Part shown: positions 13,629-26,003 of the stretch, piece by piece
Layout of the letters: each line of letters starts with the position of its first letter
Numbering within the stretch: the first letter of the stretch is position 1
DNA from: Solirubrobacterales bacterium
GTDB taxonomy: Bacteria > Actinomycetota > Thermoleophilia > Solirubrobacterales > 70-9
Assembly: GCA_049425265.1 (NCBI GenBank)
Contig: JBMSXD010000001.1
Coordinates: forward strand, 1-32,726
Length of the DNA: 32,726 nucleotides
Reading direction: 5' to 3'
The notes under the pieces: model-generated
Database searches by the model: none
Seen by the model: the letters and a program-made list of their open reading frames with translations, nothing else
What the model was told of the DNA's origin: nothing
Translations under genes and position numbers: made by a program

Positions 13629-14606
13629 TCAGCCGCTCCCGTCGGCCGCCACGGCCTCGAGCTGTCTCAGACCACCGTTCACCAGCGCCGTGAAGGGCCT
13701 GGCCAAGGGCTCGCCCTTCCTGACCAGCAGCACGATGGCAAGGCCTGCGAGGAGGTCGACCACGTAGTGCTCACCGAGGTAAACGAGGGCGAAGCCCAGG
13801 GTTCCCGCATAGACCCAGCCAAGTGCTCCCTGGACCTTCCCCCCTGACTCGGAGAGGAGGATCGCCGCCATCACCGAGGTCGCGAAGTGGAGCGACGGCA
13901 TGGCCGCCCAGGGATTCGACCCGAGGGTCCCGAAGATCCTGGTCCAGGCCGGCCCCCAGAGCCTCTCCCCGAACTCGACCATGACCCGCTTGACCTCCTC
14001 ATCGGTATGGCCGTTCTCCGACGCCCACCAAGGTGGCGCTGTCGGAGCGGCGAAGTAGACGACGCACCCGAGGTCGAAGACGGCCGCCATCTGGCGGGCC
14101 GAATGCGGGAAGGCATCGCGGTCTCGGAGCAGGATCCAGAACAGGGCCAGGTAGGGCTGGACAAACCAGAGCCAGTGGGTCCAGGCCGAGATCCGGGTCA
14201 GGACCCCCCCGGCCGGACCATCGTGCAGCAGTCGCTGGAGTCGCGCGTTGGGAAGGACACCCCGTCCGATCCACCGGTCGGCGACGATCGGGTAATCGAT
14301 CAGGAGCCTTCGTCTGAGTCGTGTCGGATTGTCGTAGGGGAGCTCATGGGTTACGGCGAAGGCCCACATCTGCCCGAGGAACAGGGCAACATCCCGTCGG
14401 CGCGAACGGGGCCAGAGGACCGCGATCGCAGCCGGTGCGAGCACCGTAGAGGCGACCGTGACCGCGGCCGGAATCCGAAGCTGGCGGCGAATGTGGGGAA
14501 CCACGACCGCGGCAGCCAGCGCGGTGACGGAGGCCGCCCTGAGCAGGGTCGAGGCCGTCGACCGTCTCCTTCGCCCGGGTCTGGGCTGGAGCAACGAACG
14601 GAGCAT
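13629..14606 (-). CDS. PAP2 superfamily (PAP2_3 / inositol-phosphoceramide-synthase-like) membrane protein
   Basis: C-terminal motifs 'AMPSLHFATS' and 'YLGEHYVVDLLAG' (PSxH ... HxxxD). I set the start at ATG 14604-14606 ('MLRSLLQ'). The longer ORF to 14843 would overlap the divergent subunit II-like gene. Confidence 0.72.
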   Translation of the reverse strand: MLRSLLQPRPGRRRRSTASTLLRAASVTALAAAVVVPHIRRQLRIPAAVTVASTVLAPAAIAVLWPRSRRRDVALFLGQMWAFAVTHELPYDNPTRLRRRLLIDYPIVADRWIGRGVLPNARLQRLLHDGPAGGVLTRISAWTHWLWFVQPYLALFWILLRDRDAFPHSARQMAAVFDLGCVVYFAAPTAPPWWASENGHTDEEVKRVMVEFGERLWGPAWTRIFGTLGSNPWAAMPSLHFATSVMAAILLSESGGKVQGALGWVYAGTLGFALVYLGEHYVVDLLAGLAIVLLVRKGEPLARPFTALVNGGLRQLEAVAADGSG

Positions 14607-14684
14607 CGCGGCCAAGGGTAGGCGACCGCGTCCCCGGCTGCCGACGGGCGGCCGGGAGGAAGGCGCCCGTCCGTTCCTTCCGCA

Positions 14685-14690
14685 TAGAAT
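14685..14690 (+). promoter_or_regulatory. TAGAAT (-10-like hexamer) overlapping the first ATG of the subunit II-like gene
   Basis: The sequence 'gcaTAGAATGgcc' is seen directly. This is one of only three TAGAAT hexamers I found by eye on either strand of the window. Confidence 0.25.
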
Positions 14691-15507
14691 GGCCACGCTC
14701 GTGGTGCTCTCCCGGAGAAAGCCGCTGCCCCTCGCCGTGGCCGCGATCGGAACCGTCGCGGCCGTCCTGATCGGTGCCGATCCGGCATCGGCCCTCTCGC
14801 TGAACCCGGATGCGATCTCGCCCGGGATCGCCAAGGGCAACACCCTTCACACGATCATGTTCGTCGTGATCGTGCTCGGGATCCTCGTGGTCAACCTCGC
14901 GATCCTGAGGGCGGTCCGCCCGCGTCATCGCTACGTCGAGGCCGAGGAGGTCGAGAGACCGAGCCGCTCGGGTCGTGTTGGGATCCTGCTCTCCCTGGTC
15001 GCCGTGGCGATCTTCGTCGTGGCGACCGTCTACACCTCTGCTTCCCGCGAGGTTCCCGAAAGCCGCGCGTCGGTCGATGGGACCCTCGAGGACGGCTCCC
15101 TCCGGATAACGGCAACCGGCCAGCAGTGGCTCTGGCGATTCAGTTACCCGAACGGTGCCTTCGGCTACCACCGACTGGTCGTACCGAAGGGCGTAACGAT
15201 CTCGCTCGAGCTGACTTCGAGCGACGTCGTCCATGGCTGGAACGTTCCCCCGCTCACCGGCAAGGCGCAGGCCGTTCCGGGCCAGACCCACCAGATCAGC
15301 TTCCGCGCCGACGAGGAGGGAACCTTCCGCGGCTGGGCATCCGTACTCTCGGGACAGGGCTACGCCGACATGGAATCGGTGGTCGAGGTCGTCCCGCCCG
15401 ATGAGTACCTGACCTACATCCGACGGCTCAAGAGGGAGATTCAGGGTGCTCAGGACATCGTCGAGGGCCAGGTCCAGGCCCAGGCCAGAAGGGCGATGAA
15501 CCAGTGA
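14689..15507 (+). CDS. Heme-copper oxidase subunit II-like cupredoxin protein lacking the CuA cysteines
   Basis: Two N-terminal TM segments plus a cupredoxin domain colinear with CtaC ('QQWLWRFSYP', 'DVVHGWNVP'). The CuA loop reads 'GWASVLSGQGYADM' where CtaC has 'ICTELCGAGHSVM'. The start is uncertain: ATG 14689, or GTG 14701/14704 if the mRNA is leaderless. Confidence 0.75.
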   Translation: MATLVVLSRRKPLPLAVAAIGTVAAVLIGADPASALSLNPDAISPGIAKGNTLHTIMFVVIVLGILVVNLAILRAVRPRHRYVEAEEVERPSRSGRVGILLSLVAVAIFVVATVYTSASREVPESRASVDGTLEDGSLRITATGQQWLWRFSYPNGAFGYHRLVVPKGVTISLELTSSDVVHGWNVPPLTGKAQAVPGQTHQISFRADEEGTFRGWASVLSGQGYADMESVVEVVPPDEYLTYIRRLKREIQGAQDIVEGQVQAQARRAMNQ

Positions 15508-17444
15508 GCGAGGAAGACGAGACGGGCATGGAAGGTCAGGAGGAGGAAACAGGGGCGGCCCCGGAAGAGGCTGTGGCCGAGGAAGAAGCCGCAACGGCTG
15601 AGACTCCCCCCGACGCATCCGGGGAAGAAGCCACCGTTACGGAGTCCACCGTTACGGAGTCCGAGGCGGAAATCACCGTCGTGGACTCCGGGGAGGAAGT
15701 CACCACTGTCGAGCAGTCTGAGGATGCGGCCGACCCCTCCCCCGACGCTGGGCTCTATCCCAAGACCGAACCGATCCCCAGGCCGGAGGTATCGGTCGAG
15801 GGCGAACCGGGGCCAAGGCAGCGCTGGATCGAACTCGCGACCAGCGCCGACCACAAGGACATCGGTCGAATACTCATCGGCACCTCCGTCGGCTCCCTCT
15901 TTCTTGCGGCCGTGCTCCTGGTGCTGCTCCGGCTCCAGCTGGCCATCCCCGAAAACGGCTTCCTCGAGCCGGTCACGTTCGACCGGTTGCTCTCGCTCTA
16001 CGGGGCAACAGCGATCTTCTTCTTCCTCCTGCCGCTCTTCTTCGGACTCTTCTACTTCCTGGTGCCCCTGATGATCGGGAGCCGGGGGACCGCCCTTCCC
16101 CGGCTGGGTCAGGTCGGCATGTGGCTGATCCTGCTCGGTGGGGTACTGCTCTACTCGACCATCCTCTACACGCCACCGGAAGCAGGGATCAACCCGCTTC
16201 CGCCGCTCTCGGAGCTCGCCTTCACCTCGAACAACGGGGTCGACGCCTGGATCGCCGGGGTCGGTTTGGCGACTCTCGGGTACATCCTGATCACGATCGA
16301 CCTGCTGGTGACGATCCGGCACCTGCGGGCCCCCGGGATGGCCTGGCGTCGGACGCCGGTTCTGGTCTGGACCGCCGCCGTGGTCACCTGGCTGTTCGCG
16401 ATCATCGGACCGATCTTCCTCGCCGCGGCGACGATGCTGATGATCGACCGTCGCCTAGGGGGAGGGTTCTTCACCGGTGGCGCGGGCGGGGCCCCGCTGC
16501 TCTGGCAGCACCTCTCGTACATCTTCTTCGCGGGGGTCTACGCGCTCACCGCGATCTCGGCACTCGGTGTGGCGACCGAAGTGATCCAGACATTCACCGG
16601 GCGGCGTTCTCCCGATCGCAAAGTGATCTTTGGATCGATGGTGGCGATCGCAGTGATGGGAACCCTTGCCTGGGGCCAAAACATGTACACGGCACCGATC
16701 GGAATCGGGGTCAAGTACTTCGCGATGTTCATGGCCATCGGCCTCATCGTTCCCTTCGGGCTGATCTACAACTCGTTGATTCGAGCGGTTTCCAGGTCCG
16801 ATTTCCACATGCGGGCCCCGCTTAGGTATGCGATGGGGGCGCTCTCGTTCGGCTCGATCGGACTCCTGGTCGAGCTCAGCCAGTCGACGATCGCGGTCGG
16901 TACCCAGCTCCAGCAGACCTACGACGCCTGGGCCGCGACCCACTTCGCGATGATCGGGTTCGGCCTGTTCGGAGGCCTCGCCGCCCTCAGTTACTGGTAC
17001 CCGAAGATGACCGGCCGGATGCTGAATGAGGACCGTGCCAGGAAGTCGTTCTGGCTCGTGGTCGGCGGCACGGCGATCGCCGTAGTGCCCCTGTTCGGTG
17101 CCGGCGTCGAGGGGCAGGTGACCGACGCCTTCCGGTTCGCGGAGGGTGAGGGAGTAAGCGCCTACAACCTGATCGCGACCCTTGGCACCCTGCTGCTCTT
17201 CCTGGGCATCGTCCTGACGATCGGGAACCTGATCCGCAGTCGGGTCGAGGAACCCCTGGCGCCCCCGGACCCCTGGCTCGGGGAGACGCTCGAGTGGCTC
17301 GCCCTCTCCCCGCCCCCAGCCCACAACTTCGATGAGCTGCCGGATGTCCGCAGCGAGGTCCCGCTGACCGACATCCGCGAAGTCCTGACCCGTTTAGACC
17401 GTGAGCGTGATCATGAAGCGCGCGAAACCGAGCCGGTAGCCTGA
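15504..17444 (+). CDS. Heme-copper oxidase subunit I-like 12-TM protein lacking heme/CuB ligands, with an acidic N-terminal extension
   Basis: Colinear with CtaD from 'ADHKDIG' to 'TLEWLALSPPPAHNFDELP', but 5 of the 6 ligand His are replaced (see findings). The GTG start overlaps the upstream TGA (GTGA). The first ~100 aa are Glu/Thr/Ala-rich, so the true start could be later. Confidence 0.8.
   Translation: MSEEDETGMEGQEEETGAAPEEAVAEEEAATAETPPDASGEEATVTESTVTESEAEITVVDSGEEVTTVEQSEDAADPSPDAGLYPKTEPIPRPEVSVEGEPGPRQRWIELATSADHKDIGRILIGTSVGSLFLAAVLLVLLRLQLAIPENGFLEPVTFDRLLSLYGATAIFFFLLPLFFGLFYFLVPLMIGSRGTALPRLGQVGMWLILLGGVLLYSTILYTPPEAGINPLPPLSELAFTSNNGVDAWIAGVGLATLGYILITIDLLVTIRHLRAPGMAWRRTPVLVWTAAVVTWLFAIIGPIFLAAATMLMIDRRLGGGFFTGGAGGAPLLWQHLSYIFFAGVYALTAISALGVATEVIQTFTGRRSPDRKVIFGSMVAIAVMGTLAWGQNMYTAPIGIGVKYFAMFMAIGLIVPFGLIYNSLIRAVSRSDFHMRAPLRYAMGALSFGSIGLLVELSQSTIAVGTQLQQTYDAWAATHFAMIGFGLFGGLAALSYWYPKMTGRMLNEDRARKSFWLVVGGTAIAVVPLFGAGVEGQVTDAFRFAEGEGVSAYNLIATLGTLLLFLGIVLTIGNLIRSRVEEPLAPPDPWLGETLEWLALSPPPAHNFDELPDVRSEVPLTDIREVLTRLDRERDHEARETEPVA
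15631..15660 (+). repeat. Perfect 15-bp tandem duplication (2 copies) inside the acidic N-terminal coding region
   Basis: CCACCGTTACGGAGT occurs at 15631-15645 and again at 15646-15660, encoding 'TVTES-TVTES'. Confidence 0.9.
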
Positions 17445-17448
17445 TGTC

Positions 17449-18378
17449 ATGAGCGCTGACGCCACCGGTGCAGGAGTGCGCAGAAGGACTGAGTCGGGCA
17501 ACTCGCTGCTCGGCGACGTGGCGACAGTCGTCCTCGACTACCTGAGTCTGACCAAGCCGAGGATCATCAGCCTGCTTCTCCTGACCACGGTCGCGACGAT
17601 GTTCGTCGCCGATCCGAACGGGCCTTCGCTCTCGGTGATCCTCTGGACGATGCTCGGGGGCTACCTGGCAGCCGGGGGGGCAGGTGCGATCAACCACTAC
17701 CTCGACCGTGACCGGGACGCCCTTATGGCCCGGACCAGTGGGAGGCCACTGGTTACCGGGCGGATCGAGCCGATCAACGGCCTGATCTTCGGGATCGGCC
17801 TCGGGATTGCCGCCTTCGGACAGCTATGGATGACGGTCAACCTGCTGACCGCCGTACTCGCGATGGTCGGGCTGCTCGGCTACGTCCTCCTCTACACCCT
17901 CTGGCTGAAGCCCCTGACCCCGCAGAACATCGTGATCGGCGGCAGTGCCGGCGCGGTCCCGCCGCTGGTCGGCTGGGCAGCAGCCACGGGAACCCTCTCC
18001 TGGGAGGCCGCATGGCCCTTCCTGATCGTCTTCTTCTGGACCCCTCCCCACTTCTGGGCCCTCTCTTTGATGATCAAGGACGACTACGCCCGGACCGGCA
18101 TCCCGATGCTCCCGGTGGTCCGGGGTGAAGCCCACACCCGGCGCCAAATCCTCCTCTACGCGGTCGTCCTGCTGGCAGTGTCGCTCGGACCGGTCGCAAC
18201 CGGGCTGCTCGGGGGCCTCTACCTGGCCTCGGCCCTTGTCCTCGGGGTCGCCTTCATCGGGTTTGCCCTGCTGCTCGAGAGACGTGCCGGGGAGCGCCTT
18301 GCCCTGAGGACCTACATCTTCTCCCTCGCTTACCTTGCCCTGTTGTTCATCGCAATGGCCGTCGACGCGGTCGTCTGA
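17449..18378 (+). CDS. ctaB: Protoheme IX farnesyltransferase (heme O synthase)
   Basis: UbiA-type polytopic protein with 'YLSLTKPRIISLLLLTTVATM', 'GAINHYLDRDRDALMARTSGRPL' (NxxxDxxxD) and 'WTPPHFWALS'. Confidence 0.92.
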   Translation: MSADATGAGVRRRTESGNSLLGDVATVVLDYLSLTKPRIISLLLLTTVATMFVADPNGPSLSVILWTMLGGYLAAGGAGAINHYLDRDRDALMARTSGRPLVTGRIEPINGLIFGIGLGIAAFGQLWMTVNLLTAVLAMVGLLGYVLLYTLWLKPLTPQNIVIGGSAGAVPPLVGWAAATGTLSWEAAWPFLIVFFWTPPHFWALSLMIKDDYARTGIPMLPVVRGEAHTRRQILLYAVVLLAVSLGPVATGLLGGLYLASALVLGVAFIGFALLLERRAGERLALRTYIFSLAYLALLFIAMAVDAVV

Positions 18379-18390
18379 TCGGAGGCTGGA

Positions 18391-18504
18391 ATGGACCGAA
18401 ACGAATCGAAGAAGCTGCTTTCCTCAGGCCTCCTGACCGGTACGGGAATCGCGATTCTCTTCGCGCTCACCTTCCTGTTCTCCACCTTCTACCTCGCCTC
18501 CTGA
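18391..18504 (+). CDS. Small single-TM protein (37 aa), not in the supplied ORF track
   Basis: ATG 18391 is preceded by GGAGG (18381-18385, 5-nt spacer), 12 nt after the ctaB stop. The product is 'MDRNESKKLLSSGLLTGTGIAILFALTFLFSTFYLAS', a basic N-terminus followed by one hydrophobic helix. The TGA at 18502-18504 lies 4 nt before the next ATG. Confidence 0.45.
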   Translation: MDRNESKKLLSSGLLTGTGIAILFALTFLFSTFYLAS

Positions 18505-18508
18505 ACCG

Positions 18509-18811
18509 ATGGCCGACGAGTCCAGCCAGCCAACCATTCCCGAGCCGACGGAGACGATCCGCCTGCCGGCACCGTCCTGGGCACCGGCCGTCCTCGCCTT
18601 CGGGATCCTCGGAATCGTCGCGGGTGCCTTCGCGACCGGCTTCATGTTCCCACCGCTCTGGTTCGCGATCCTCGGAGCGTTCCTCGCGGTTTTCGCCCTT
18701 CGGAGCATGATCCGACGCGGCGTCCGGTCGTTCTACGGGCTCCCGCGTGAAGAGGATCAGCCGCGAGCGGAGATCCCGGTCGACAGCTTCGGTCCACCCC
18801 GTCTGGACTGA
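18509..18811 (+). CDS. Hypothetical 2-TM membrane protein (100 aa)
   Basis: Two hydrophobic helices ('APAVLAFGILGIVAGAFATGF', 'LWFAILGAFLAVFALRSMI') with high-GC3 codon usage. It is tightly packed after the 37-aa ORF. I recognised no family. Confidence 0.6.
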   Translation: MADESSQPTIPEPTETIRLPAPSWAPAVLAFGILGIVAGAFATGFMFPPLWFAILGAFLAVFALRSMIRRGVRSFYGLPREEDQPRAEIPVDSFGPPRLD

Positions 18812-18818
18812 ACTGCCC

Positions 18819-19262
18819 TCAGGCAGCCTGCCGGTCGGGGGGATCTTCCGAGGTTGCACCGTCGGAAGTCCAGGCTCTCATGATGTCCCTCATCGAGAGG
18901 ACTCCGACCAGCTCGCCGTCGGAACAGACGACCAGATGCCTTATTCCCCGCTTTGACATCTCGGTCGCAGCCCGCTCCATGCTCCAGTCCGGGGATGCGG
19001 TGATCACCTTCTCACTCATGTGGTCCCGAACCAGCTCCGAGTCTGGATCGAGTCCCGAGCCAATGGCATTCAGGAGATCTCGTTCCGTCAGCACCCGGGG
19101 AACGGGCCACTCCTCGTCCTCGACGATCGCCGCTCCTATCCCCCGCTCCGACATCCGCGAAGCGGCTTCTCGAAGACTCAAACTGGGGCCGATCCTCAAG
19201 ACGACCTCCGACATCCCGACTTGAATCTCCACTTCTGTTCCTTCCTCCGAACCCGGATTCAC
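18819..19262 (-). CDS. CBS-pair domain protein
   Basis: Two CBS repeats ('IGAAIVEDEE..VLTERDLLNAI' and 'GIRHLVVCSDGELVGVLSMRDIM'). The start is GTG 19262, or ATG 19214 ('MSEVVLRIG'). Confidence 0.8.
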   Translation of the reverse strand: MNPGSEEGTEVEIQVGMSEVVLRIGPSLSLREAASRMSERGIGAAIVEDEEWPVPRVLTERDLLNAIGSGLDPDSELVRDHMSEKVITASPDWSMERAATEMSKRGIRHLVVCSDGELVGVLSMRDIMRAWTSDGATSEDPPDRQAA

Positions 19263-19312
19263 AGTTCCAGGAGTTTGTGCTGATTGCCTCCAGCCTACCC
19301 CAATCCCCTGGG

Positions 19313-19341
19313 TTCGTAAACATCTGACCGATCGGTAGAAT
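19313..19341 (+). promoter_or_regulatory. Candidate promoter of the cytochrome c / ctaA unit (TTCGTA-N17-TAGAAT)
   Basis: TAGAAT at 19336-19341 lies 11 nt before ATG 19353, and TTCGTA at 19313-19318 gives a 17-nt spacer. The region is locally AT-rich and intergenic. Confidence 0.35.
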
Positions 19342-19352
19342 CTGGAGTCCCG

Positions 19353-20063
19353 ATGAGTCGTCGTTCCCTCACCCTCAAGACTCTCTCGACCCTTTCGGCG
19401 GGCGGACTCCTCATCGCGCTTGCCTCCGGATGCGGGACCGAGAGTTCGGCCGAGATCTCAGGCGGCTTCCAGGACAGGGGCCGTCAGATCTTCAACTCCA
19501 AGTGCGGGACCTGTCATAAGCTGGCTCAGGCGGCGAGCCAGGGTAACCAGGGACCCAACCTCGATACTGCCTTCGCCGCGGCCCGAGCTGCCGGAATGAG
19601 CGAGGACACCGTGAAGGGAGTGGTGCTCTACCAGATCTACCATCCCCGTCCTTCGGTCAAGGGTTACCCCGGCGTCTCGATGCCGGCGAACATAGTCACC
19701 GGCAACGACGCCGAGGACGTAGCCGCCTACGTCGCCCGTTACGCGGGTGTCCCGGGTGCCAAACCGCCGATCGCCCCGGGTGAAGGTCCAGGTGCCCAGG
19801 TGTATGCGAATCAGGGCTGTGGCTCCTGCCATATTTTCGCCGCCGCCGAATCGGCCGGTGTCCTCGGGCCCAACCTCGACGAGTACATCCCGAAGATGTC
19901 CAAGGCTCAGATCAAGCAGGCCATCACCAACCCGAGCGCAACCAAGGCGAAGGGGTACGAGAACGCCGTGATGCCAAATCGCTGGGCTAACCTCCCGCCG
20001 AAGGAACTCGACGAGCTAGTCAACTTCCTCGTCGATTACGCCGCCGGACCCGGCGGGAACTGA
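19353..20063 (+). CDS. Di-heme class I c-type cytochrome, probable lipoprotein
   Basis: Signal peptide ending 'LIALASGCG' (lipobox-like). Two heme-binding motifs, 'CGTCH' and 'CGSCH', each followed by a candidate Met ligand ('VSMPAN', 'AVMPNR'). Confidence 0.85.
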   Translation: MSRRSLTLKTLSTLSAGGLLIALASGCGTESSAEISGGFQDRGRQIFNSKCGTCHKLAQAASQGNQGPNLDTAFAAARAAGMSEDTVKGVVLYQIYHPRPSVKGYPGVSMPANIVTGNDAEDVAAYVARYAGVPGAKPPIAPGEGPGAQVYANQGCGSCHIFAAAESAGVLGPNLDEYIPKMSKAQIKQAITNPSATKAKGYENAVMPNRWANLPPKELDELVNFLVDYAAGPGGN

Positions 20064-20091: not shown

Positions 20092-21042
20092 GTGGCCGCC
20101 CGCTTGAAGAACCTCTCGATCTCTCCGGAGACCTACTCGAAGGTCGCCGGGGCCGCCCTCGTCGCGCTGATCCTGATCGTCTTCACCGGATCGGCGGTGC
20201 GTCTGACCGCCTCGGGGCTCGGCTGCCCCGACTGGCCCCGCTGCTACGGCGAATACATCCCGCCCAGCCAGCTGAACGCCTGGATCGAGTTCGGGAACCG
20301 GATGTTGACCGGCCTGGTCGGTCTGGCCGTGGTCGCCGCCTCCCTGCTCGCCTTCTTCCGGCGACCCTTCCGGTGGCATCTGGCAGCGTTCGGCGCTCTG
20401 CTGCCCCTCGGGGTGATCGGACAGGTCATGCTCGGTGCCTTCGTGGTCGAGTACCACCTGCCGCCGGAACTGGTGATCGGACACTTCATCCTCTCGATGA
20501 TCCTGCTCGACGCGGCCTTCGTGCTGTTCTGGTGCTCTCGCTACGAGCCCGGTGAACGTCGCTTCTCGACCGATGTCTTCGGGGTGTGGTCGGTCAGGGC
20601 CCTGATTCCACTCGGCCAGCTAACGGTGCTCCTGGGAACGATCACGACGGCGTCCGGGCCACACCCCGGTGACCACGATCGTGAGCTGGTCCAGAGGTTC
20701 GACTTCAAGGGGCCCGAAACGCTCGAGTGGATCGTCCAGCGACACGCGACGATGGCCGTCCTGTTCGGGCTTGGGACCCTTGTAGTGCTGGCGATCCTGA
20801 TGCGTCGGGGGGGTGACCGCAGGGCAGTCAGGCCCGTCTCGGTCGTTGCCGGTCTGATCGGCTTCCAGATCGCACTCGGGATAACCCAGTGGCTCCTCGA
20901 GCTGCCTGCGATCCTGGTCTGGTTCCACGTGGTGACCGCAACCCTGATCTGGGTCGCGGTGCTCTGGGCGGTCGCGACGGCCGGCCAGATCGACTACGCA
21001 CGGGGACGAGCGCCTGCCCGTGCCGCGCCGGGGGTATCCTGA
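20092..21042 (+). CDS. ctaA: Heme A synthase (COX15/CtaA family)
   Basis: 8-TM protein with 'GSAVRLTASGLGCPDWPRCYG' and conserved His in the TM helices ('HFILS', 'HPGDHD', 'WFHV'). Confidence 0.88.
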   Translation: MAARLKNLSISPETYSKVAGAALVALILIVFTGSAVRLTASGLGCPDWPRCYGEYIPPSQLNAWIEFGNRMLTGLVGLAVVAASLLAFFRRPFRWHLAAFGALLPLGVIGQVMLGAFVVEYHLPPELVIGHFILSMILLDAAFVLFWCSRYEPGERRFSTDVFGVWSVRALIPLGQLTVLLGTITTASGPHPGDHDRELVQRFDFKGPETLEWIVQRHATMAVLFGLGTLVVLAILMRRGGDRRAVRPVSVVAGLIGFQIALGITQWLLELPAILVWFHVVTATLIWVAVLWAVATAGQIDYARGRAPARAAPGVS

Positions 21043-21417: not shown

Positions 21418-21741
21418 CTAGCCGTCCTCGGAATCCCCGTCGCGGCCAGTTGGCGGCCCCTCCGGCCCCTCGCCCTCGAGCGTGTCGGTCCCACGGAGCC
21501 TCCGCCAGGCGCCCCGCATGGCGACGACCGAGACGAAGGCCCCCAGCAGCAGCGCAGCGATGAACCCGACCGTGGACGAGATCAACTTGGCGAGGAGGAT
21601 GACCAAGGCGGCGGCAACGATCACCGCAACGACCCATCTGAACGCGGCCTGTTCGGACTCGAGCGGGTTGCCCAGCCTGAACCTCCGATCTGACCGGCCC
21701 TCGGTCAGAGGATGTAGATCGTCGTGAACACCACGACCCAC
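21418..21741 (-). CDS. Hypothetical 2-TM membrane protein downstream of ctaE (possible small oxidase subunit)
   Basis: Two hydrophobic helices ('FRWVVAVIVAAALVILLAKLI', 'VGFIAALLLGAFVSVVAM') and an acidic tail. GTG 21741 would overlap ctaE by 37 nt, and the only later in-frame candidates are CTG/GTG, so the start is uncertain. Confidence 0.45.
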   Translation of the reverse strand: MGRGVHDDLHPLTEGRSDRRFRLGNPLESEQAAFRWVVAVIVAAALVILLAKLISSTVGFIAALLLGAFVSVVAMRGAWRRLRGTDTLEGEGPEGPPTGRDGDSEDG

Positions 21742-22340
21742 ATGATGTCCACGAAGTGCCAGTAGATGCCGGGCACTTCGACACCCAGGTGGTCCTTCTC
21801 GGCGGGGCCGAAGTGGCCGCGGAAGGCCCTGATGTTCGCGAAGGTCAACAACAGCAGGCCGACGAATACGTGGGCCCCGTGAAGTCCAGTGAGGCTGAAG
21901 AAGATCGAGCCGAAGGCGCCGTCAGCAGGCGAGAAACCGATGTGGATGTACTCGTTGATCTGGATGAAGAGGAAGGTCACACCGAGCAACCAGGTCATCA
22001 CAAGCCCCAGCTTCAGTCCGTTGTGGTTGTTGTGCCGGATCGCCTCCAGCGCGTAGTGCACGGTGAAGCTCGAGGAGATCAGGATGACCGTGTTGATCCC
22101 GGCGATAAGGACAGGCAGTTCGATCCCGACCGGAGGCCAGGTATCGGGGCCGACGACGACCCGGAGGAAGAAGTAGGCCGCGAAGAAGCTTGCGAACAGC
22201 ATTACCTCCGAGAGGATGAAGAGGAGGATCCCGAGGATCGTCTGATCGATCCGGGCGCTCTGGTTAGCCTCGGGAGGACCGTGGTGGTGGTCCTCGGCGG
22301 GGGTCGCGTGACCGGTTGTGGCGACGCTGGCGCTCTCCAT
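21705..22340 (-). CDS. ctaE: Cytochrome c oxidase subunit III
   Basis: 'FFSLTGLHGAHVFVGLLLL' and C-terminal 'VEVPGIYWHFVDIMWVVVFTTIYIL' are canonical COX3 blocks. Confidence 0.92.
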   Translation of the reverse strand: MESASVATTGHATPAEDHHHGPPEANQSARIDQTILGILLFILSEVMLFASFFAAYFFLRVVVGPDTWPPVGIELPVLIAGINTVILISSSFTVHYALEAIRHNNHNGLKLGLVMTWLLGVTFLFIQINEYIHIGFSPADGAFGSIFFSLTGLHGAHVFVGLLLLTFANIRAFRGHFGPAEKDHLGVEVPGIYWHFVDIMWVVVFTTIYIL

Positions 22341-23215
22341 CAGACCTCCACCCCAGCTTCCTCGCCGTCTCCGGCCGCGACCGCGGCGACCACGGTCTCC
22401 CCGGCGCGCCCTGCCTCATGATGGGAAACCGGTTTGTCGGTGAACTCCCGGACCCGCCCGATCAGGTCGTCTTTGAGCCATTGGGACTCGTCCCCGGGCA
22501 GGGTCGAAATCAGGATGTCATCCACCTGGTAGAACTCGATCGCATTCTTGACCGCGGAGAACGGGTCCGAAGCGAGCGGCTGGCCCGTCGCGTCGACATC
22601 GCTCTCGTAGAGCCTCGCCATCAGTCCCGCCAGCCCCCGGGTGACCGCTGCCTGGGGTACTCCCTCGGTCGATGGGGCGATGATCGTGTACCTGTGGGGG
22701 CTCTCGGCAGCCCTTGCCAGCAGGCGATCAGCAAGATCGGGACTCGAAAGGGTCTGGTTGCCGATCACCAGGGTGTGGGTTACGTCCTGACGGACCGAGT
22801 CGTCCTCGATCCGAACCGGAATGTGGGTCACCGTGGTGCCGGGGGCGAATTCACCCTTGGCCCACTCGACCAGGTCTCGCCTCGCGAAGCCGAACCTCGT
22901 CTCGTACAGGCATGAGAGCAGGACCTCGGACGGTCGATGGCTCCTGACCGCGTCCCCGAGCGCTAGCTCGGGGGCCGGATCGAGAACCTCGCCGACCGCC
23001 TCGATACCGAACTCCTCGAGAACTGCAAGGGTGACCTCGACCCGGCTGCGTGCAGCCTGGGCCGTCTCCTCCGGAGAAGTGATCTGGCCGGCGGTCGGGC
23101 GGTTGGCAGGGGCTACGGCCACCACGTACGAGGCTTCCGGCGCCCGTTCCTGGGCGGCACCCAGGAGTTTCCGGCCACCGGCAACCTCATTCAGGAATAG
23201 GAGCAGGGGCCGCAC
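22340..23215 (-). CDS. Uncharacterised soluble protein made of two tandem alpha/beta (USP/HUP-like) domains, embedded between ctaD and ctaE
   Basis: The internal duplication is visible by eye (aa 3-133 vs 146-265). The GTG start is 3 nt after the ctaD stop, and the TGA overlaps the ctaE ATG (TGATG). High-GC3 codon usage. Confidence 0.7.
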   Translation of the reverse strand: MRPLLLFLNEVAGGRKLLGAAQERAPEASYVVAVAPANRPTAGQITSPEETAQAARSRVEVTLAVLEEFGIEAVGEVLDPAPELALGDAVRSHRPSEVLLSCLYETRFGFARRDLVEWAKGEFAPGTTVTHIPVRIEDDSVRQDVTHTLVIGNQTLSSPDLADRLLARAAESPHRYTIIAPSTEGVPQAAVTRGLAGLMARLYESDVDATGQPLASDPFSAVKNAIEFYQVDDILISTLPGDESQWLKDDLIGRVREFTDKPVSHHEAGRAGETVVAAVAAGDGEEAGVEV

Positions 23216-23218
23216 CGG

Positions 23219-25132
23219 TTACGTGGCGGCAGGTACGGTCGACGGCTTCGGCTCCGGGACGGTCGCCTCCGAGTCCTCGTCGCCCATGATTGCGTGCCTG
23301 GCGCCAGGCGTCCCATACTCGTAGGGACCGCCGACGACCCTCGGGATTTCATCGAAGTTGAAGGTAGGAGGCGGTGAGGAGACGAGCCACTCGATCGTCT
23401 TCGACCTCCAGGGGTTGCCGCTCGCCCTGGGGCCGTACTTCCAGCTGACCACCATGTTGTAGAGGAAGACCAGCTGCGCAAGCCCGAGGATCAGGGAGAA
23501 GAAGCTGATCACAAGGTTCCACTCCCCGAACTGGCTGGCGTAGTCGGCGACCCTCCGGGGCATCCCCTCGAGACCGATCCAGTGCTGTGGAATGAAGGTC
23601 CCCCAGGTGCCGATCATCGTGCCCCAGAAGTGAATCCGGCCGAGCCGTTCGTCGTACATCCGGCCGGTCATCTTCGGGAACCAGTAGTAGATCCCGGCGA
23701 AGATCGTGAACACCGAGCCGCCGAACAGGACGAAGTGGATGTGGGCGACGACGAAGTACGTGTCGGACATGTGGATGTCGAGCGGAACCATCCCGAGCAT
23801 CACGCCACTGATCCCTCCCACCGTGAAGGTCACGATGAACCCGAGGGCGAACAGCATTGCCGTCGAATAGGTGTGGATCTTGCCGTAGAAGAGGGTTCCC
23901 AGCCAGGAGAAGATTTTGATCCCAGTCGGGACCGCGATCAGCAGGGTCGTAATCATGATCGGGACCCGCAGCCAGGAGAACATCCCGGCCACGAACATGT
24001 GGTGGGCCCAGACCGAGTAGGAGAGGACGACGATCCCGAGCAGGGCGAGGGCCATCAACCGGTAGCCGAAGATCGGTTTCCGGGCGTTGGTCGCGATTAC
24101 CTCAGAGATGATCCCGAAGCCGGGCAACATCATGATGTAGACCGCCGGGTGTGAGTAGAACCAGAAGATGTGCTGGTAGCTGAGGACGTCACCGCCTTCG
24201 AGGAAGTTGAAGAAGTTCATCCCCATGATCCGGTCGAAGAGGACCATGAACTGGACCCCCGCGATGAACGGGGTGGCCCCGACCACGATCAGCGAAGTCG
24301 AGAGGTTCGCCCAGACGAGCAGGGGCATACGCCACAGGTTCATCCCGGGCGCACGCATGGTGATGATCGTGACCAGGAAGTTGAGCGCGGTCGCGATCGA
24401 GGACGCCCCGGCGAACTGGACACCTACATTGAAGAAGCTCTGCCCCAGCGGTGCCCCGGTCGATAACGGTGCATAGCCGGTCCAGCCTGCATCGAACGAG
24501 CCACCCGGCGCCAGGAAGCTGCCCATGAAGATCAGCCCGGCGATCGGCAGCAACCAGAAGCTGAGGGCGTTCAACCTCGGGAAGGCCATGTCGGGCGCCC
24601 CGATCATGATCGGCAGCACGTAGTTGGCGATCCCGGCGAACATCGGGATGATGAACAGGAAGATCATCACCGTCGCGTGGGTCGAGAACAGTCCGTTGTA
24701 GACGTTCGGGTCGACGATCTGGGTCCCGGGCTGGGCCAGCTCGGCCCGGATCAGCATCGCCAGAAGTCCACCGACGAAAAAGAAGAAGAAGGTGGTGACG
24801 ATGTACTGAATGCCGATGACCTTGTGGTCGGTGTTGAAGGTGAAGTAGTCCTGCCATCGGGTGGCACCGTGGCCGGAATGGTCATCGGGAACGGTCGGCT
24901 TGCCCGCTGCCCAGCGGAACCAGTAGGAGAAGGCTCCGAAGCCGATCAGGAAACCGAAGGGCGCAGTGATCAGCGGGACCACGACCTGTGGGTACCCGGT
25001 CTGCTCGGTCTGGAAGGCGTCGAGTCCGGAAACGAGCCTGAGAATTACGACCAGGCCGAAGCCGAATGCGGCCCCGATCAAGGCCCCGAGGGCTCCCCGA
25101 TACCAGCCGGGCTCTCTCAAAGCATGTGCCAT
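23219..25132 (-). CDS. ctaD: Cytochrome c oxidase subunit I, A2-type, with an extra N-terminal 2-TM extension
   Basis: All six ligand His are present ('FSTHATV', 'YSHPAVY', 'WAHHMF', 'VAHIHF'), together with 'GMPRR' and 'PTGIKIFSW'. Confidence 0.95.
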   Translation of the reverse strand: MAHALREPGWYRGALGALIGAAFGFGLVVILRLVSGLDAFQTEQTGYPQVVVPLITAPFGFLIGFGAFSYWFRWAAGKPTVPDDHSGHGATRWQDYFTFNTDHKVIGIQYIVTTFFFFFVGGLLAMLIRAELAQPGTQIVDPNVYNGLFSTHATVMIFLFIIPMFAGIANYVLPIMIGAPDMAFPRLNALSFWLLPIAGLIFMGSFLAPGGSFDAGWTGYAPLSTGAPLGQSFFNVGVQFAGASSIATALNFLVTIITMRAPGMNLWRMPLLVWANLSTSLIVVGATPFIAGVQFMVLFDRIMGMNFFNFLEGGDVLSYQHIFWFYSHPAVYIMMLPGFGIISEVIATNARKPIFGYRLMALALLGIVVLSYSVWAHHMFVAGMFSWLRVPIMITTLLIAVPTGIKIFSWLGTLFYGKIHTYSTAMLFALGFIVTFTVGGISGVMLGMVPLDIHMSDTYFVVAHIHFVLFGGSVFTIFAGIYYWFPKMTGRMYDERLGRIHFWGTMIGTWGTFIPQHWIGLEGMPRRVADYASQFGEWNLVISFFSLILGLAQLVFLYNMVVSWKYGPRASGNPWRSKTIEWLVSSPPPTFNFDEIPRVVGGPYEYGTPGARHAIMGDEDSEATVPEPKPSTVPAAT

Positions 25133-25145
25133 CAGCTCGCTCCAA

Positions 25146-25985
25146 TCATGACTGAGTCACGTTGTCCCGCGTCGTCTCCTCGACACCGCTGCCACCGATC
25201 CCGCCTTCCGCCTTTTGAATCTGTCTCTGGATCTCGAGCGCCTGGTCGGCCGTCAGGATGAGGCCCGTCGGCACCTTTTCGTCCAGTTCCTTTACCCAGC
25301 GGTTGAATTTCTTCACCGGCTCGACCACCACCTTGGCCCGCATAACCGAATGGCCAGCCCCGCAGAGCTCGGTACAGATCAGCTGGAAGGTACCGACCCG
25401 GTCCGGCGTGATGACCGCGTCCGTTGTGATCCCGGGCACGTTGTCCTTCTTGATCCGCCACTCGGGAACCCAGAACGAATGGAGCACGTCCTGGGCGTGC
25501 ATGTTGAAGACGACCTGCCGTCCCACCGGAACGTGGAACTCGCCCTCCGACCACTTGTTGCCCTCGGTGGGGTACCCGAAAGTCCAGGCGAACTGCTGGG
25601 AGTAGACGTTGACGATCAGTGGGTCGGAGTCGACCTCCTCGATGTCATCGAGGACGGCCCAGCTGTACCCGGCCGCGAACAGGACGATGATCGTCGGGAT
25701 GATCGTCCAGATGAGCTCGAGCTTCGTATTGCCGTGGATCGGCAGGCCATCGCTCTCGTCGCCAGGCTTGACCCTCCAGCGGTAGAGGGCGTAGCCCAGG
25801 AAGACGCAGACGATCGCGAAGACGAAGGAGGAGATGATGATCATCCAGTCGAGCAGCGTGTCGATCGGGCCGGCCGCAGTGGACCCGGCCTCGCCGTTCC
25901 AGTCGATCTGGACCATCAGCACCGCGATGACGGCACCGATCGCGAGGGAGACGATCGCAAGTCTGAGGTAAGGGACCTTTGGCAT
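25146..25985 (-). CDS. ctaC: Cytochrome c oxidase subunit II (CuA-containing, no fused cytochrome c domain)
   Basis: Two N-terminal TM helices plus a cupredoxin domain with a full CuA site ('DVLHSFWVP' ... 'CTELCGAGHSVM'). There is no CxxCH motif. Confidence 0.93.
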   Translation of the reverse strand: MPKVPYLRLAIVSLAIGAVIAVLMVQIDWNGEAGSTAAGPIDTLLDWMIIISSFVFAIVCVFLGYALYRWRVKPGDESDGLPIHGNTKLELIWTIIPTIIVLFAAGYSWAVLDDIEEVDSDPLIVNVYSQQFAWTFGYPTEGNKWSEGEFHVPVGRQVVFNMHAQDVLHSFWVPEWRIKKDNVPGITTDAVITPDRVGTFQLICTELCGAGHSVMRAKVVVEPVKKFNRWVKELDEKVPTGLILTADQALEIQRQIQKAEGGIGGSGVEETTRDNVTQS

Positions 25986-25997
25986 CAGACCTCCCGG

Positions 25998-26003
25998 ATT
26001 CTA
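25998..26003 (-). promoter_or_regulatory. TAGAAT (-10-like hexamer) 12 nt upstream of the ctaC ATG
   Basis: The minus strand reads 'ctcGGGTAGAATCCGGGAGGtctgATG' inside the 44-bp gap between the glycosyltransferase stop and the ctaC start. Confidence 0.3.

Follow-up and report, generated by a model that had tools for sequence, protein, structure and literature searches.

The 32,726-nucleotide (nt) stretch of DNA analysed here, referred to below as the window, comprises positions 1 to 32,726 of contig JBMSXD010000001.1 (assembly GCA_049425265.1) of a Solirubrobacterales bacterium (Actinomycetota, Thermoleophilia), whose 1.6-Mb metagenome-assembled genome is 91% complete. Between positions 14689 and 18811 it carries five forward-strand genes that resemble part of a heme-copper oxidase operon: homologues of oxidase subunits II and I that have lost their cofactor ligands (here called II* and I*), the heme O synthase gene ctaB, and genes for two small membrane proteins (s37 and s100). 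The tight packing reported in the initial annotation is borne out by open reading frame (ORF) coordinates and junction sequences, which leave at most 12 nt between neighbouring genes. Indeed, the GTG start codon of I* and the stop codon of II* overlap as GTGA, and the following spacers measure 4 nt (I* to ctaB), 12 nt (ctaB to s37, with GGAGG 6 nt 5' of s37) and 4 nt (s37 to s100). The stretch was found without indels on contigs from three independent metagenome studies. The five genes and the box at their head are:

14685..14690, forward strand: TAGAAT, a -10-like box and putative promoter element at the operon head (hexamer search)
14689..15507, forward strand: II*, cupredoxin membrane protein resembling subunit II, CuA site lost (PF00116, COX2)
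15504..17444, forward strand: I*, 12-helix subunit I-like protein without five of the six His ligands (Pfam COX1)
17449..18378, forward strand: ctaB, heme O synthase (NF003349, TIGR01473)
18391..18504, forward strand: s37, single-helix protein of 36-37 amino acids (aa) (ORF, alignment of relatives)
18509..18811, forward strand: s100, two-helix protein of 100 aa, CtaF-like and the predicted equivalent of subunit III helices 1-2 (profile A3)

I* matches PF00115 (COX1) with 241 bits, and its best NCBIfam model is TIGR02891 (CtaD_CoxA) with 334.3 bits, which does not reach the cut-off of 670.75; scores against TIGR02843 (CyoB) and TIGR02882 are 272 (cut-off 1020) and 273 (cut-off 1015), respectively. 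The AlphaFold2 model (pLDDT 81.6, pTM 0.86) has 12 long helices and finds its best structural match by Foldseek in CtaD of C. glutamicum (7Q21_D; TM 0.91, 28-30% identity). When I* is aligned to the canonical CtaD encoded further along the window, five of the six His ligand positions are occupied by Y, A, Q, N and A, and the sole His kept is the second heme-a His. The cross-link Tyr is replaced, the Asp (D132) and Asn (N139) of the D-channel are both Gly, the Lys of the K-channel is Ile, and the Arg pair of the heme propionates is T-D. The same replacements are carried by the 120 closest database homologues (58-98% identity). The first ~110 residues of I* (15504-15833) form an acidic, low-complexity extension that occurs only in its closest relatives (624-646 aa vs ~564 aa elsewhere). 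Of the 150 cluster representatives (50% level) closest to I* (P0121-P0270), well over half were flagged with incomplete His sets in an alignment that was not hand-checked; many of the flagged proteins are fragments and many lie outside the I* family. Ligand-poor look-alikes of subunit I seem to be common in metagenomes.

II* has likewise kept its architecture, a cupredoxin domain behind two N-terminal helices, and aligns colinearly with CtaC (PF00116 59.8 bits; TIGR02866 128.5 bits, below the cut-off of 147.7). At the CuA positions it reads H-A-V-S-Y-M vs H-C-E-C-H-M in CtaC, so that both Cys and the second His are gone; the pattern S/S/Y or F runs through all 12 tabulated ligand-less loci of the window's family. 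The Trp of the QQW.W motif is retained. The ctaB product scores 357.5 bits against NF003349 (cut-off 246) and 323.5 bits against TIGR01473 (cut-off 210.3), and a search of the host's own genome, at its 91% completeness, returned it as the only heme O synthase. The two COX1 genes and the one heme O synthase gene of this genome all lie inside the window. The data support the initial suggestion that the pair, now without its redox ligands, has remained linked to the sole heme O synthase gene.

The ancestry of the cluster can be read from its relatives. Sixty-one genomes of the order were searched (the order tally has 11 genomes of family f5, including G036) and 30 loci were fetched (the 18 liganded rows include G057, locus L023). 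In 30/30 of these loci the subunit II and subunit I genes are followed by ctaB, or by ctaA and then ctaB; ctaA stands between I* and ctaB in many relatives. The arrangement is not unique to the window's genome. It is kept in all 12 ligand-less loci of the family that were first fetched and in 20/20 further genera, where it reads II*-I*-(ctaA)-ctaB-s37-s100 and is followed 3' of s100 by a diheme cytochrome c gene in 18 cases, and it recurs in sister-family operons that have their ligands. The syntenic genes of families f2, f3 and f4 encode A1-type enzymes in which every ligand is present: GHPEVY, Asp and Asn of the D-channel, Lys of the K-channel, all six His and the Arg pair are there, and the CuA site is complete. 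A liganded enzyme of the A2 type occupies the syntenic position in family f6; the orthologous subunit II of f2, f3, f4 and f6 reads H-C-E/Q-C-H-M. The ligands are gone from both subunits in the window's family (f1), and from subunit I in family f5, a finding that covers subunit I only. Another Thermoleophilia order (f9) shows the layout ctaC-ctaD(A1)-ctaB-s37, with 11 of 12 copies liganded. In that order, the ctaB-linked subunit I of genome G221 (locus L098) is partly degenerate, with the signature HQNFAHAYQHNHSR and one in-frame TGA, and its close relatives are fully liganded; here the operon has decayed a second time, independently of f1.

Maximum-likelihood trees, obtained by a quick search and with support from the Shimodaira-Hasegawa-like approximate likelihood-ratio test (SH-aLRT) only, agree with the gene order. 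The ctaB-linked subunit I genes of the order form one clade (SH-aLRT 96), inside which a ligand-less clade (99) is sister to the liganded genes (91). The canonical A2 genes, linked to a USP-like gene, form a separate clade (100), and E. coli CyoB falls outside all of these in both trees. Less certain is the position of f5 beside f1, where branches are long. The cluster very probably goes back in direct line to an operon of ancestral Thermoleophilia that encoded a second oxidase, a cytochrome c oxidase of the A1 type, in the order ctaC-ctaD-(ctaA)-ctaB-s37-s100; we take this ancestor for a cytochrome c oxidase because the sister-family orthologues are A1-type enzymes with six His, D- and K-channels and a full CuA site.

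The two small proteins belong to this inheritance, as both follow ctaB in liganded and ligand-less operons alike. The initial annotation had regarded them as unrelated additions to an operon without subunits III and IV. For s37, which could be aligned from 10 genomes in five families, no match was found in Pfam, NCBIfam or PDB profiles; for s100, which has two hydrophobic segments, the description probably does not hold. Searched against the PDB, profile A3 of s100 matches residues 6-65 of bovine COX3 (E 3.6e-4) and subunit III of R. sphaeroides (1.6e-3), and also the C-terminal helices of QoxB/CyoB and, at 0.049, CtaF of M. smegmatis. PF12270 is matched by 10 of 13 s100 members (best E 9.3e-6), all below the Pfam cut-off (listed score 19.1 vs 26.9 bits). 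The ctaE of the window covers positions 78-255 only of the COX3 profile, i.e. it lacks helices 1-2. In the genomes examined a full-scoring five-helix ctaE occurs just once, even where there are two working oxidases (G050 has a weak second COX3 match). We regard s100 as the probable, CtaF-like equivalent of subunit III helices 1-2. In M. smegmatis, CtaE and CtaF together make up subunit III, with helices 1-2 provided by CtaF (reviewed in PMC8361435). Locus L101 (G260, family f8) encodes a caa3-type fusion of subunits I and III; between subunit I and the five-helix CtaE part, and in one frame with both, lies a two-helix piece similar to s100. The subunit II of this locus has a cytochrome c domain, and its ctaB is divergent.

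The ligand-less pair is widely kept. Of 151 family genomes, 135 contain I* at E 1e-90 or better and 140 contain the canonical CtaD; among the 94 near-complete ones the numbers are 91 and 93, respectively (the tallies include G064, G104, G164 and G173). The expectation that genomes with the pair also have a canonical cta operon is thus supported; seven genomes have I* without a match to canonical CtaD, each of them fragmented (at least 150 contigs) or at most 85% complete. In one genome (G030) neither I* nor ctaB was found, probably owing to an assembly gap and not to loss. Ratios of nonsynonymous to synonymous substitution rates (dN/dS; NG86), taken from two within-genus pairs at dS 0.6-1.0 and to be read as upper bounds, lie at 0.19-0.21 (I*), 0.22-0.27 (II*) and 0.23 (s100), compared with 0.17 for ctaB in the same pair and 0.17 for a pair of liganded A1 subunit I genes. 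Across 31 genera, 134 columns of I* are conserved at 90% or more (vs 167 in 27 liganded sequences), and Q392, N393, E457 and D541 are new conserved polar residues at former cofactor positions. Judged from tree lengths, I* evolves about 2.6 times as fast as canonical CtaD and at about the rate of CtaC and ctaB. Frame-broken copies of I* exist in seven genomes (G076, G139, G062, G101, G082, G163 and G090). Most of these cannot be told from indel errors, because all seven are few-contig assemblies and single breaks also occur in ctaB (G062, also G066) and in ctaA (G163). The pair is retained under purifying selection, beside ctaB and together with a working oxidase.

Whether the products still belong together was approached with an exploratory test of rate covariation, which covered eight proteins from 25 genomes (28 pairs; branch lengths were fitted to one fixed topology, and the remaining six proteins served to normalise each pair). 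II* and I* co-vary strongly (rho 0.60, p 4e-5) and are the only pair to survive Bonferroni correction for 28 tests. The value for I* and s100 is lower (rho 0.41, p 0.008), and s100 does not follow the canonical subunits (CtaD: rho -0.32, p 0.042; CtaE: rho 0.07, p 0.648), for which reason the canonical oxidase may not use s100 at all. No covariation was seen between I* and canonical CtaC or CtaE; with CtaD rho is 0.30. Because the rates of II* and I* co-vary, we infer that these two, and probably s100 and s37, still form a cofactor-free membrane complex in the shape of an oxidase; for s100 the rates are only suggestive.

The surroundings of the operon contain the other respiratory genes of the window:

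18819..19262, reverse strand: CBS-pair gene, convergent, bounding the operon (PF00571 at 1.8e-24)
19353..20063, forward strand: diheme c-type cytochrome gene with its own TAGAAT box (context)
20092..21042, forward strand: ctaA, heme A synthase (PF02628, 94 bits)
21705..25985, reverse strand: canonical A2-type oxidase operon of ctaC, ctaD, a USP-like gene and five-helix ctaE (all ligands, YSHPAVY motif)

The canonical CtaD has ~95 extra N-terminal residues with hydrophobic segments (24848-25132, reverse strand), which, like the rates of s100, hint that this enzyme may do without s100. TAGAAT occurs three times in the window, at 14685-14690 and 19336-19341 on the forward and at 25998-26003 on the reverse strand. 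This number is not above chance; the placement is striking, as each copy lies directly 5' of one respiratory unit, namely the II* operon, the cytochrome c gene and canonical ctaC. Nine relatives (G025, G020, G050, G010, G035, G040, G005, G022 and G018), drawn from five families, likewise have TAGAAT or TACAAT where their subunit II gene begins. The hexamer is probably a shared -10 element that gives rise to short-leader or leaderless mRNAs. A scan of positions 14200-19500 for sigma-70 and terminator consensus sequences found nothing. The first TAGAAT (14685-14690) runs into the ATG at 14689, and II* may therefore truly begin at the in-frame GTG at 14701, which is spaced as in the other two units. 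Given the box at the operon head and the convergent CBS-pair gene downstream, II* to s100 are likely to form one transcription unit.

Two further observations concern the flanks and junctions of the cluster. The longest ORF of a divergent PAP2_3 gene (13629-14843, reverse strand) overlaps the start of II* and the TAGAAT box, and the real start of that gene must lie further downstream on the reverse strand. Contigs from a freshwater study differ from the window by one base in the I* part (15991-17301) and by 37 in the ctaB-s37-s100 part (17312-18900). They break at about 17301-17312 in two runs, and most of the listed differences in the latter part are spaced in multiples of three. A recombination boundary may lie at the I*/ctaB junction.

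From these data the following course of events is very probable. II* and I* in the window's family have lost the residues for heme, CuB, CuA and the proton channels, a degeneration that is similar in subunit I of f5, and have retained their fold, their reading frames, the two small subunits and their position 5' of ctaB. Respiration is carried out by the neighbouring A2-type oxidase. The empty complex would share a single transcript with the heme O synthase; start and stop codons that overlap or lie 4-12 nt apart, the conserved TAGAAT box and the convergent next gene are the indicators of such co-expression. We tentatively suggest that the complex is not an enzyme and may act as a non-catalytic scaffold in oxidase biogenesis or in the supply of heme O/A to the canonical oxidase. 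This scaffold is our guess at the foremost of the functional readings, and we hold it with some reserve. A specific version, in which II*, I*, s37 and s100 would be an assembly platform that docks the heme O and heme A synthases and hands heme to nascent canonical CtaD in a clade without SURF1, we consider somewhat unlikely.

Several results weigh against the scaffold reading. The linkage with ctaB was inherited from a working operon, and synteny alone is therefore no sign of a new functional tie. Nor does rate covariation support a tight tie of the pair to CtaB: among the 25 genomes it is nil for I* and ctaB (rho -0.03, p 0.835) as well as for II* and ctaB (rho 0.07, p 0.682), and a coupling of I* with CtaB based on such covariation was dropped for want of a signal. 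The family has no common, conserved set of His, Cys or Tyr residues able to hold heme, the Y...H pair found in the window's genus is not kept in other genera, and the propionate-binding Arg pair is lost. SURF1 (PF02104) was found in none of five Solirubrobacterales genomes (G000, G050, G008, G009 and G017), liganded or not, whereas control genomes were matched; as it is absent from liganded and ligand-less families alike, the pair is no obvious replacement for it. Finally, the pair can be lost: in G076, I* has nine or more frame changes and II* is only a fragment, with ctaB and s100 intact, and this copy of I* is most likely a true pseudogene.

In another view, II* and I* would be jobless relics of expression. 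They would be retained because the essential ctaB has its promoter on their 5' side and its translation is coupled to theirs, so that selection would ask only for products that can be translated and leave the membrane unharmed. The promoter-like box 5' of II*, the overlapping or 4-nt junctions, the absence of I*-ctaB rate covariation and the frame-broken copies in seven genomes would all fit, although many of the breaks may be sequencing errors. However, a dN/dS of about 0.2, equal to that of the working A1 oxidase pair (0.17) and of ctaB, the 134 conserved columns over 31 genera, the specific polar replacements fixed at the old ligand sites and the strong covariation of II* with I* argue against this view, and we consider it an unlikely explanation. 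Alternatively, the empty complex could be a structural part of the respiratory chain, docked beside the canonical oxidase and/or complex III, where it would position c-type cytochromes or supercomplex contacts. Such a position would suit the lipoprotein diheme cytochrome c gene 3' of the operon in 18/20 genera, the retained Trp of the QQW.W motif in II*, and the role of CtaE and CtaF in the III-IV contacts of actinobacterial supercomplexes (PMC8361435). In two genera, moreover, II* has lost its CuA ligands but ends in a cytochrome c domain whose CGGCH motif is intact (G102, L063:107-1294, forward strand, and G094, L064, reverse strand). This fusion occurs in just two of ~32 genera examined, however, and the extension is either a leftover of a caa3-type ancestor, such as the subunit II of f8 would represent, or a later fusion; I* does not co-vary with canonical CtaC or CtaE, and CtaD reaches rho 0.30 only. 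Docking of this kind is therefore improbable to us.

Other explanations grant the pair an activity of its own. A putative cluster of conserved Q, N, E and D residues in the old heme a3-CuB pocket could be a site for ions, protons or small molecules, as in a channel, transporter or sensor. The family-specific conserved polar residues Q190, Q392, N393, E457 and D541 at buried former cofactor positions, together with a fold that AlphaFold2 and Foldseek show as intact, are consistent with this. The residues of the D- and K-channels are gone, however, and we know of no analogous activity in this superfamily, which makes such a gain of function very doubtful. A remaining redox enzyme would have to hold heme by unconventional ligands, e.g. 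Tyr and His at the former heme a site. In the genus-level clade of the window, the first heme-a His is indeed Tyr in 121/121 sequences and the second His is kept in 118/121. Across the family, however, both positions vary freely (the first is Y, F, S, A, G or H and the second H, Y, F, L, G, A or I), and neither the propionate Arg pair nor the CuB ligands nor the CuA site has been preserved. A still-working Tyr/His heme site was dropped as a candidate, since the pair holds only in that genus-level clade, and an active redox enzyme is extremely improbable.

As little credence can be given to the proposal of the initial annotation that the cluster is a stripped quinol oxidase operon of the cyoABCDE type without subunits III and IV. 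The E. coli order it quoted, cyoA-B-C-D-E, is correct, and there is a resemblance in that a CuA-less subunit II comes first, followed by subunit I and a heme O synthase. Nevertheless, quinol oxidase ancestry is contradicted by the orthologous operons of f2-f4 and of another order, which have CuA (H-C-E-C-H-M) and an A1-type subunit I, and by the outgroup position of CyoB in both trees. NCBIfam likewise favours CtaD_CoxA over CyoB (334 vs 272 bits), I* has 12 helices and not 14-15, and a probable subunit III-like piece is present in the form of s100. At the positions of the CyoB quinol site (R71, D75, H98 and Q101), I* has L/V, E, T/I and R; R71 and H98 are also missing from the liganded A1 relatives.

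Among known systems, the liganded A1 operons of sister families and of the other order (G002-G054, G201-G266) are closest to the window's cluster. They are orthologous by tree and synteny and have the same gene order, the small proteins and a TAGAAT-type box, and they possess the six His, the Tyr, D132, N139, the channel Lys, the Arg pair and CuA that the window pair has lost. The split of subunit III into a five-helix CtaE and a piece with helices 1-2 is probably shared with the actinobacterial CtaC/CtaD/CtaE/CtaF core (C. glutamicum 7Q21; M. smegmatis 6HWH/6ADQ). By contrast with that aa3 core, I* and II* lack cofactor sites, s100 has two helices where CtaF has four, and the operon of the window contains ctaB and no ctaE. 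The bo3 oxidase operon of E. coli, in which a CuA-less subunit II likewise precedes subunit I and a heme O synthase is encoded, differs in that CyoB possesses all its ligands, a quinol site and additional C-terminal helices and lies outside phylogenetically, and in the order II-I-ctaB-s37-s100 of the window.

Literature searches on heme-copper oxidases without ligands in Actinobacteria or Solirubrobacterales gave nothing specific. The nearest published parallel is a gene of Acetobacter that is clustered with ctaB. Its product is described as a 'deranged COX1-like protein' without metal ligands, and a structural function in relation to CtaB has been proposed for it (Matsutani et al. 2014, as presented by Degli Esposti et al. 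2023, PMC10715153). As with I*, a ligand-less homologue of subunit I is retained there beside the heme O synthase gene. Compared with that account, the window belongs to another phylum and adds a ligand-less subunit II, two small subunits, a coexisting aa3 oxidase and liganded orthologues in sister families. The two cases are likely to be of independent origin, because I* appears to descend from a Thermoleophilia A1 oxidase.

For the biology of these organisms, a practical consequence concerns annotation. Databases label II* and I* as cytochrome c oxidase subunits, and counting them as such overstates the respiratory capacity of widespread, uncultured actinobacteria of water and soil. The locus further offers a clean case of a multi-subunit membrane enzyme that turned into a pseudoenzyme, with the working orthologue surviving in sister families; selection has maintained its blank version in over 50 genera, and a few lineages show decay. 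If the complex helps to make or deliver heme O/A, an unknown player would be added to oxidase biogenesis, and the presence of blank subunit I genes beside ctaB in unrelated bacteria such as Acetobacter would be explained. Should the complex prove to be an assembly platform, a whole former oxidase would have become the chaperone of its sister enzyme, and the liganded orthologues would form with it a natural before-and-after pair.

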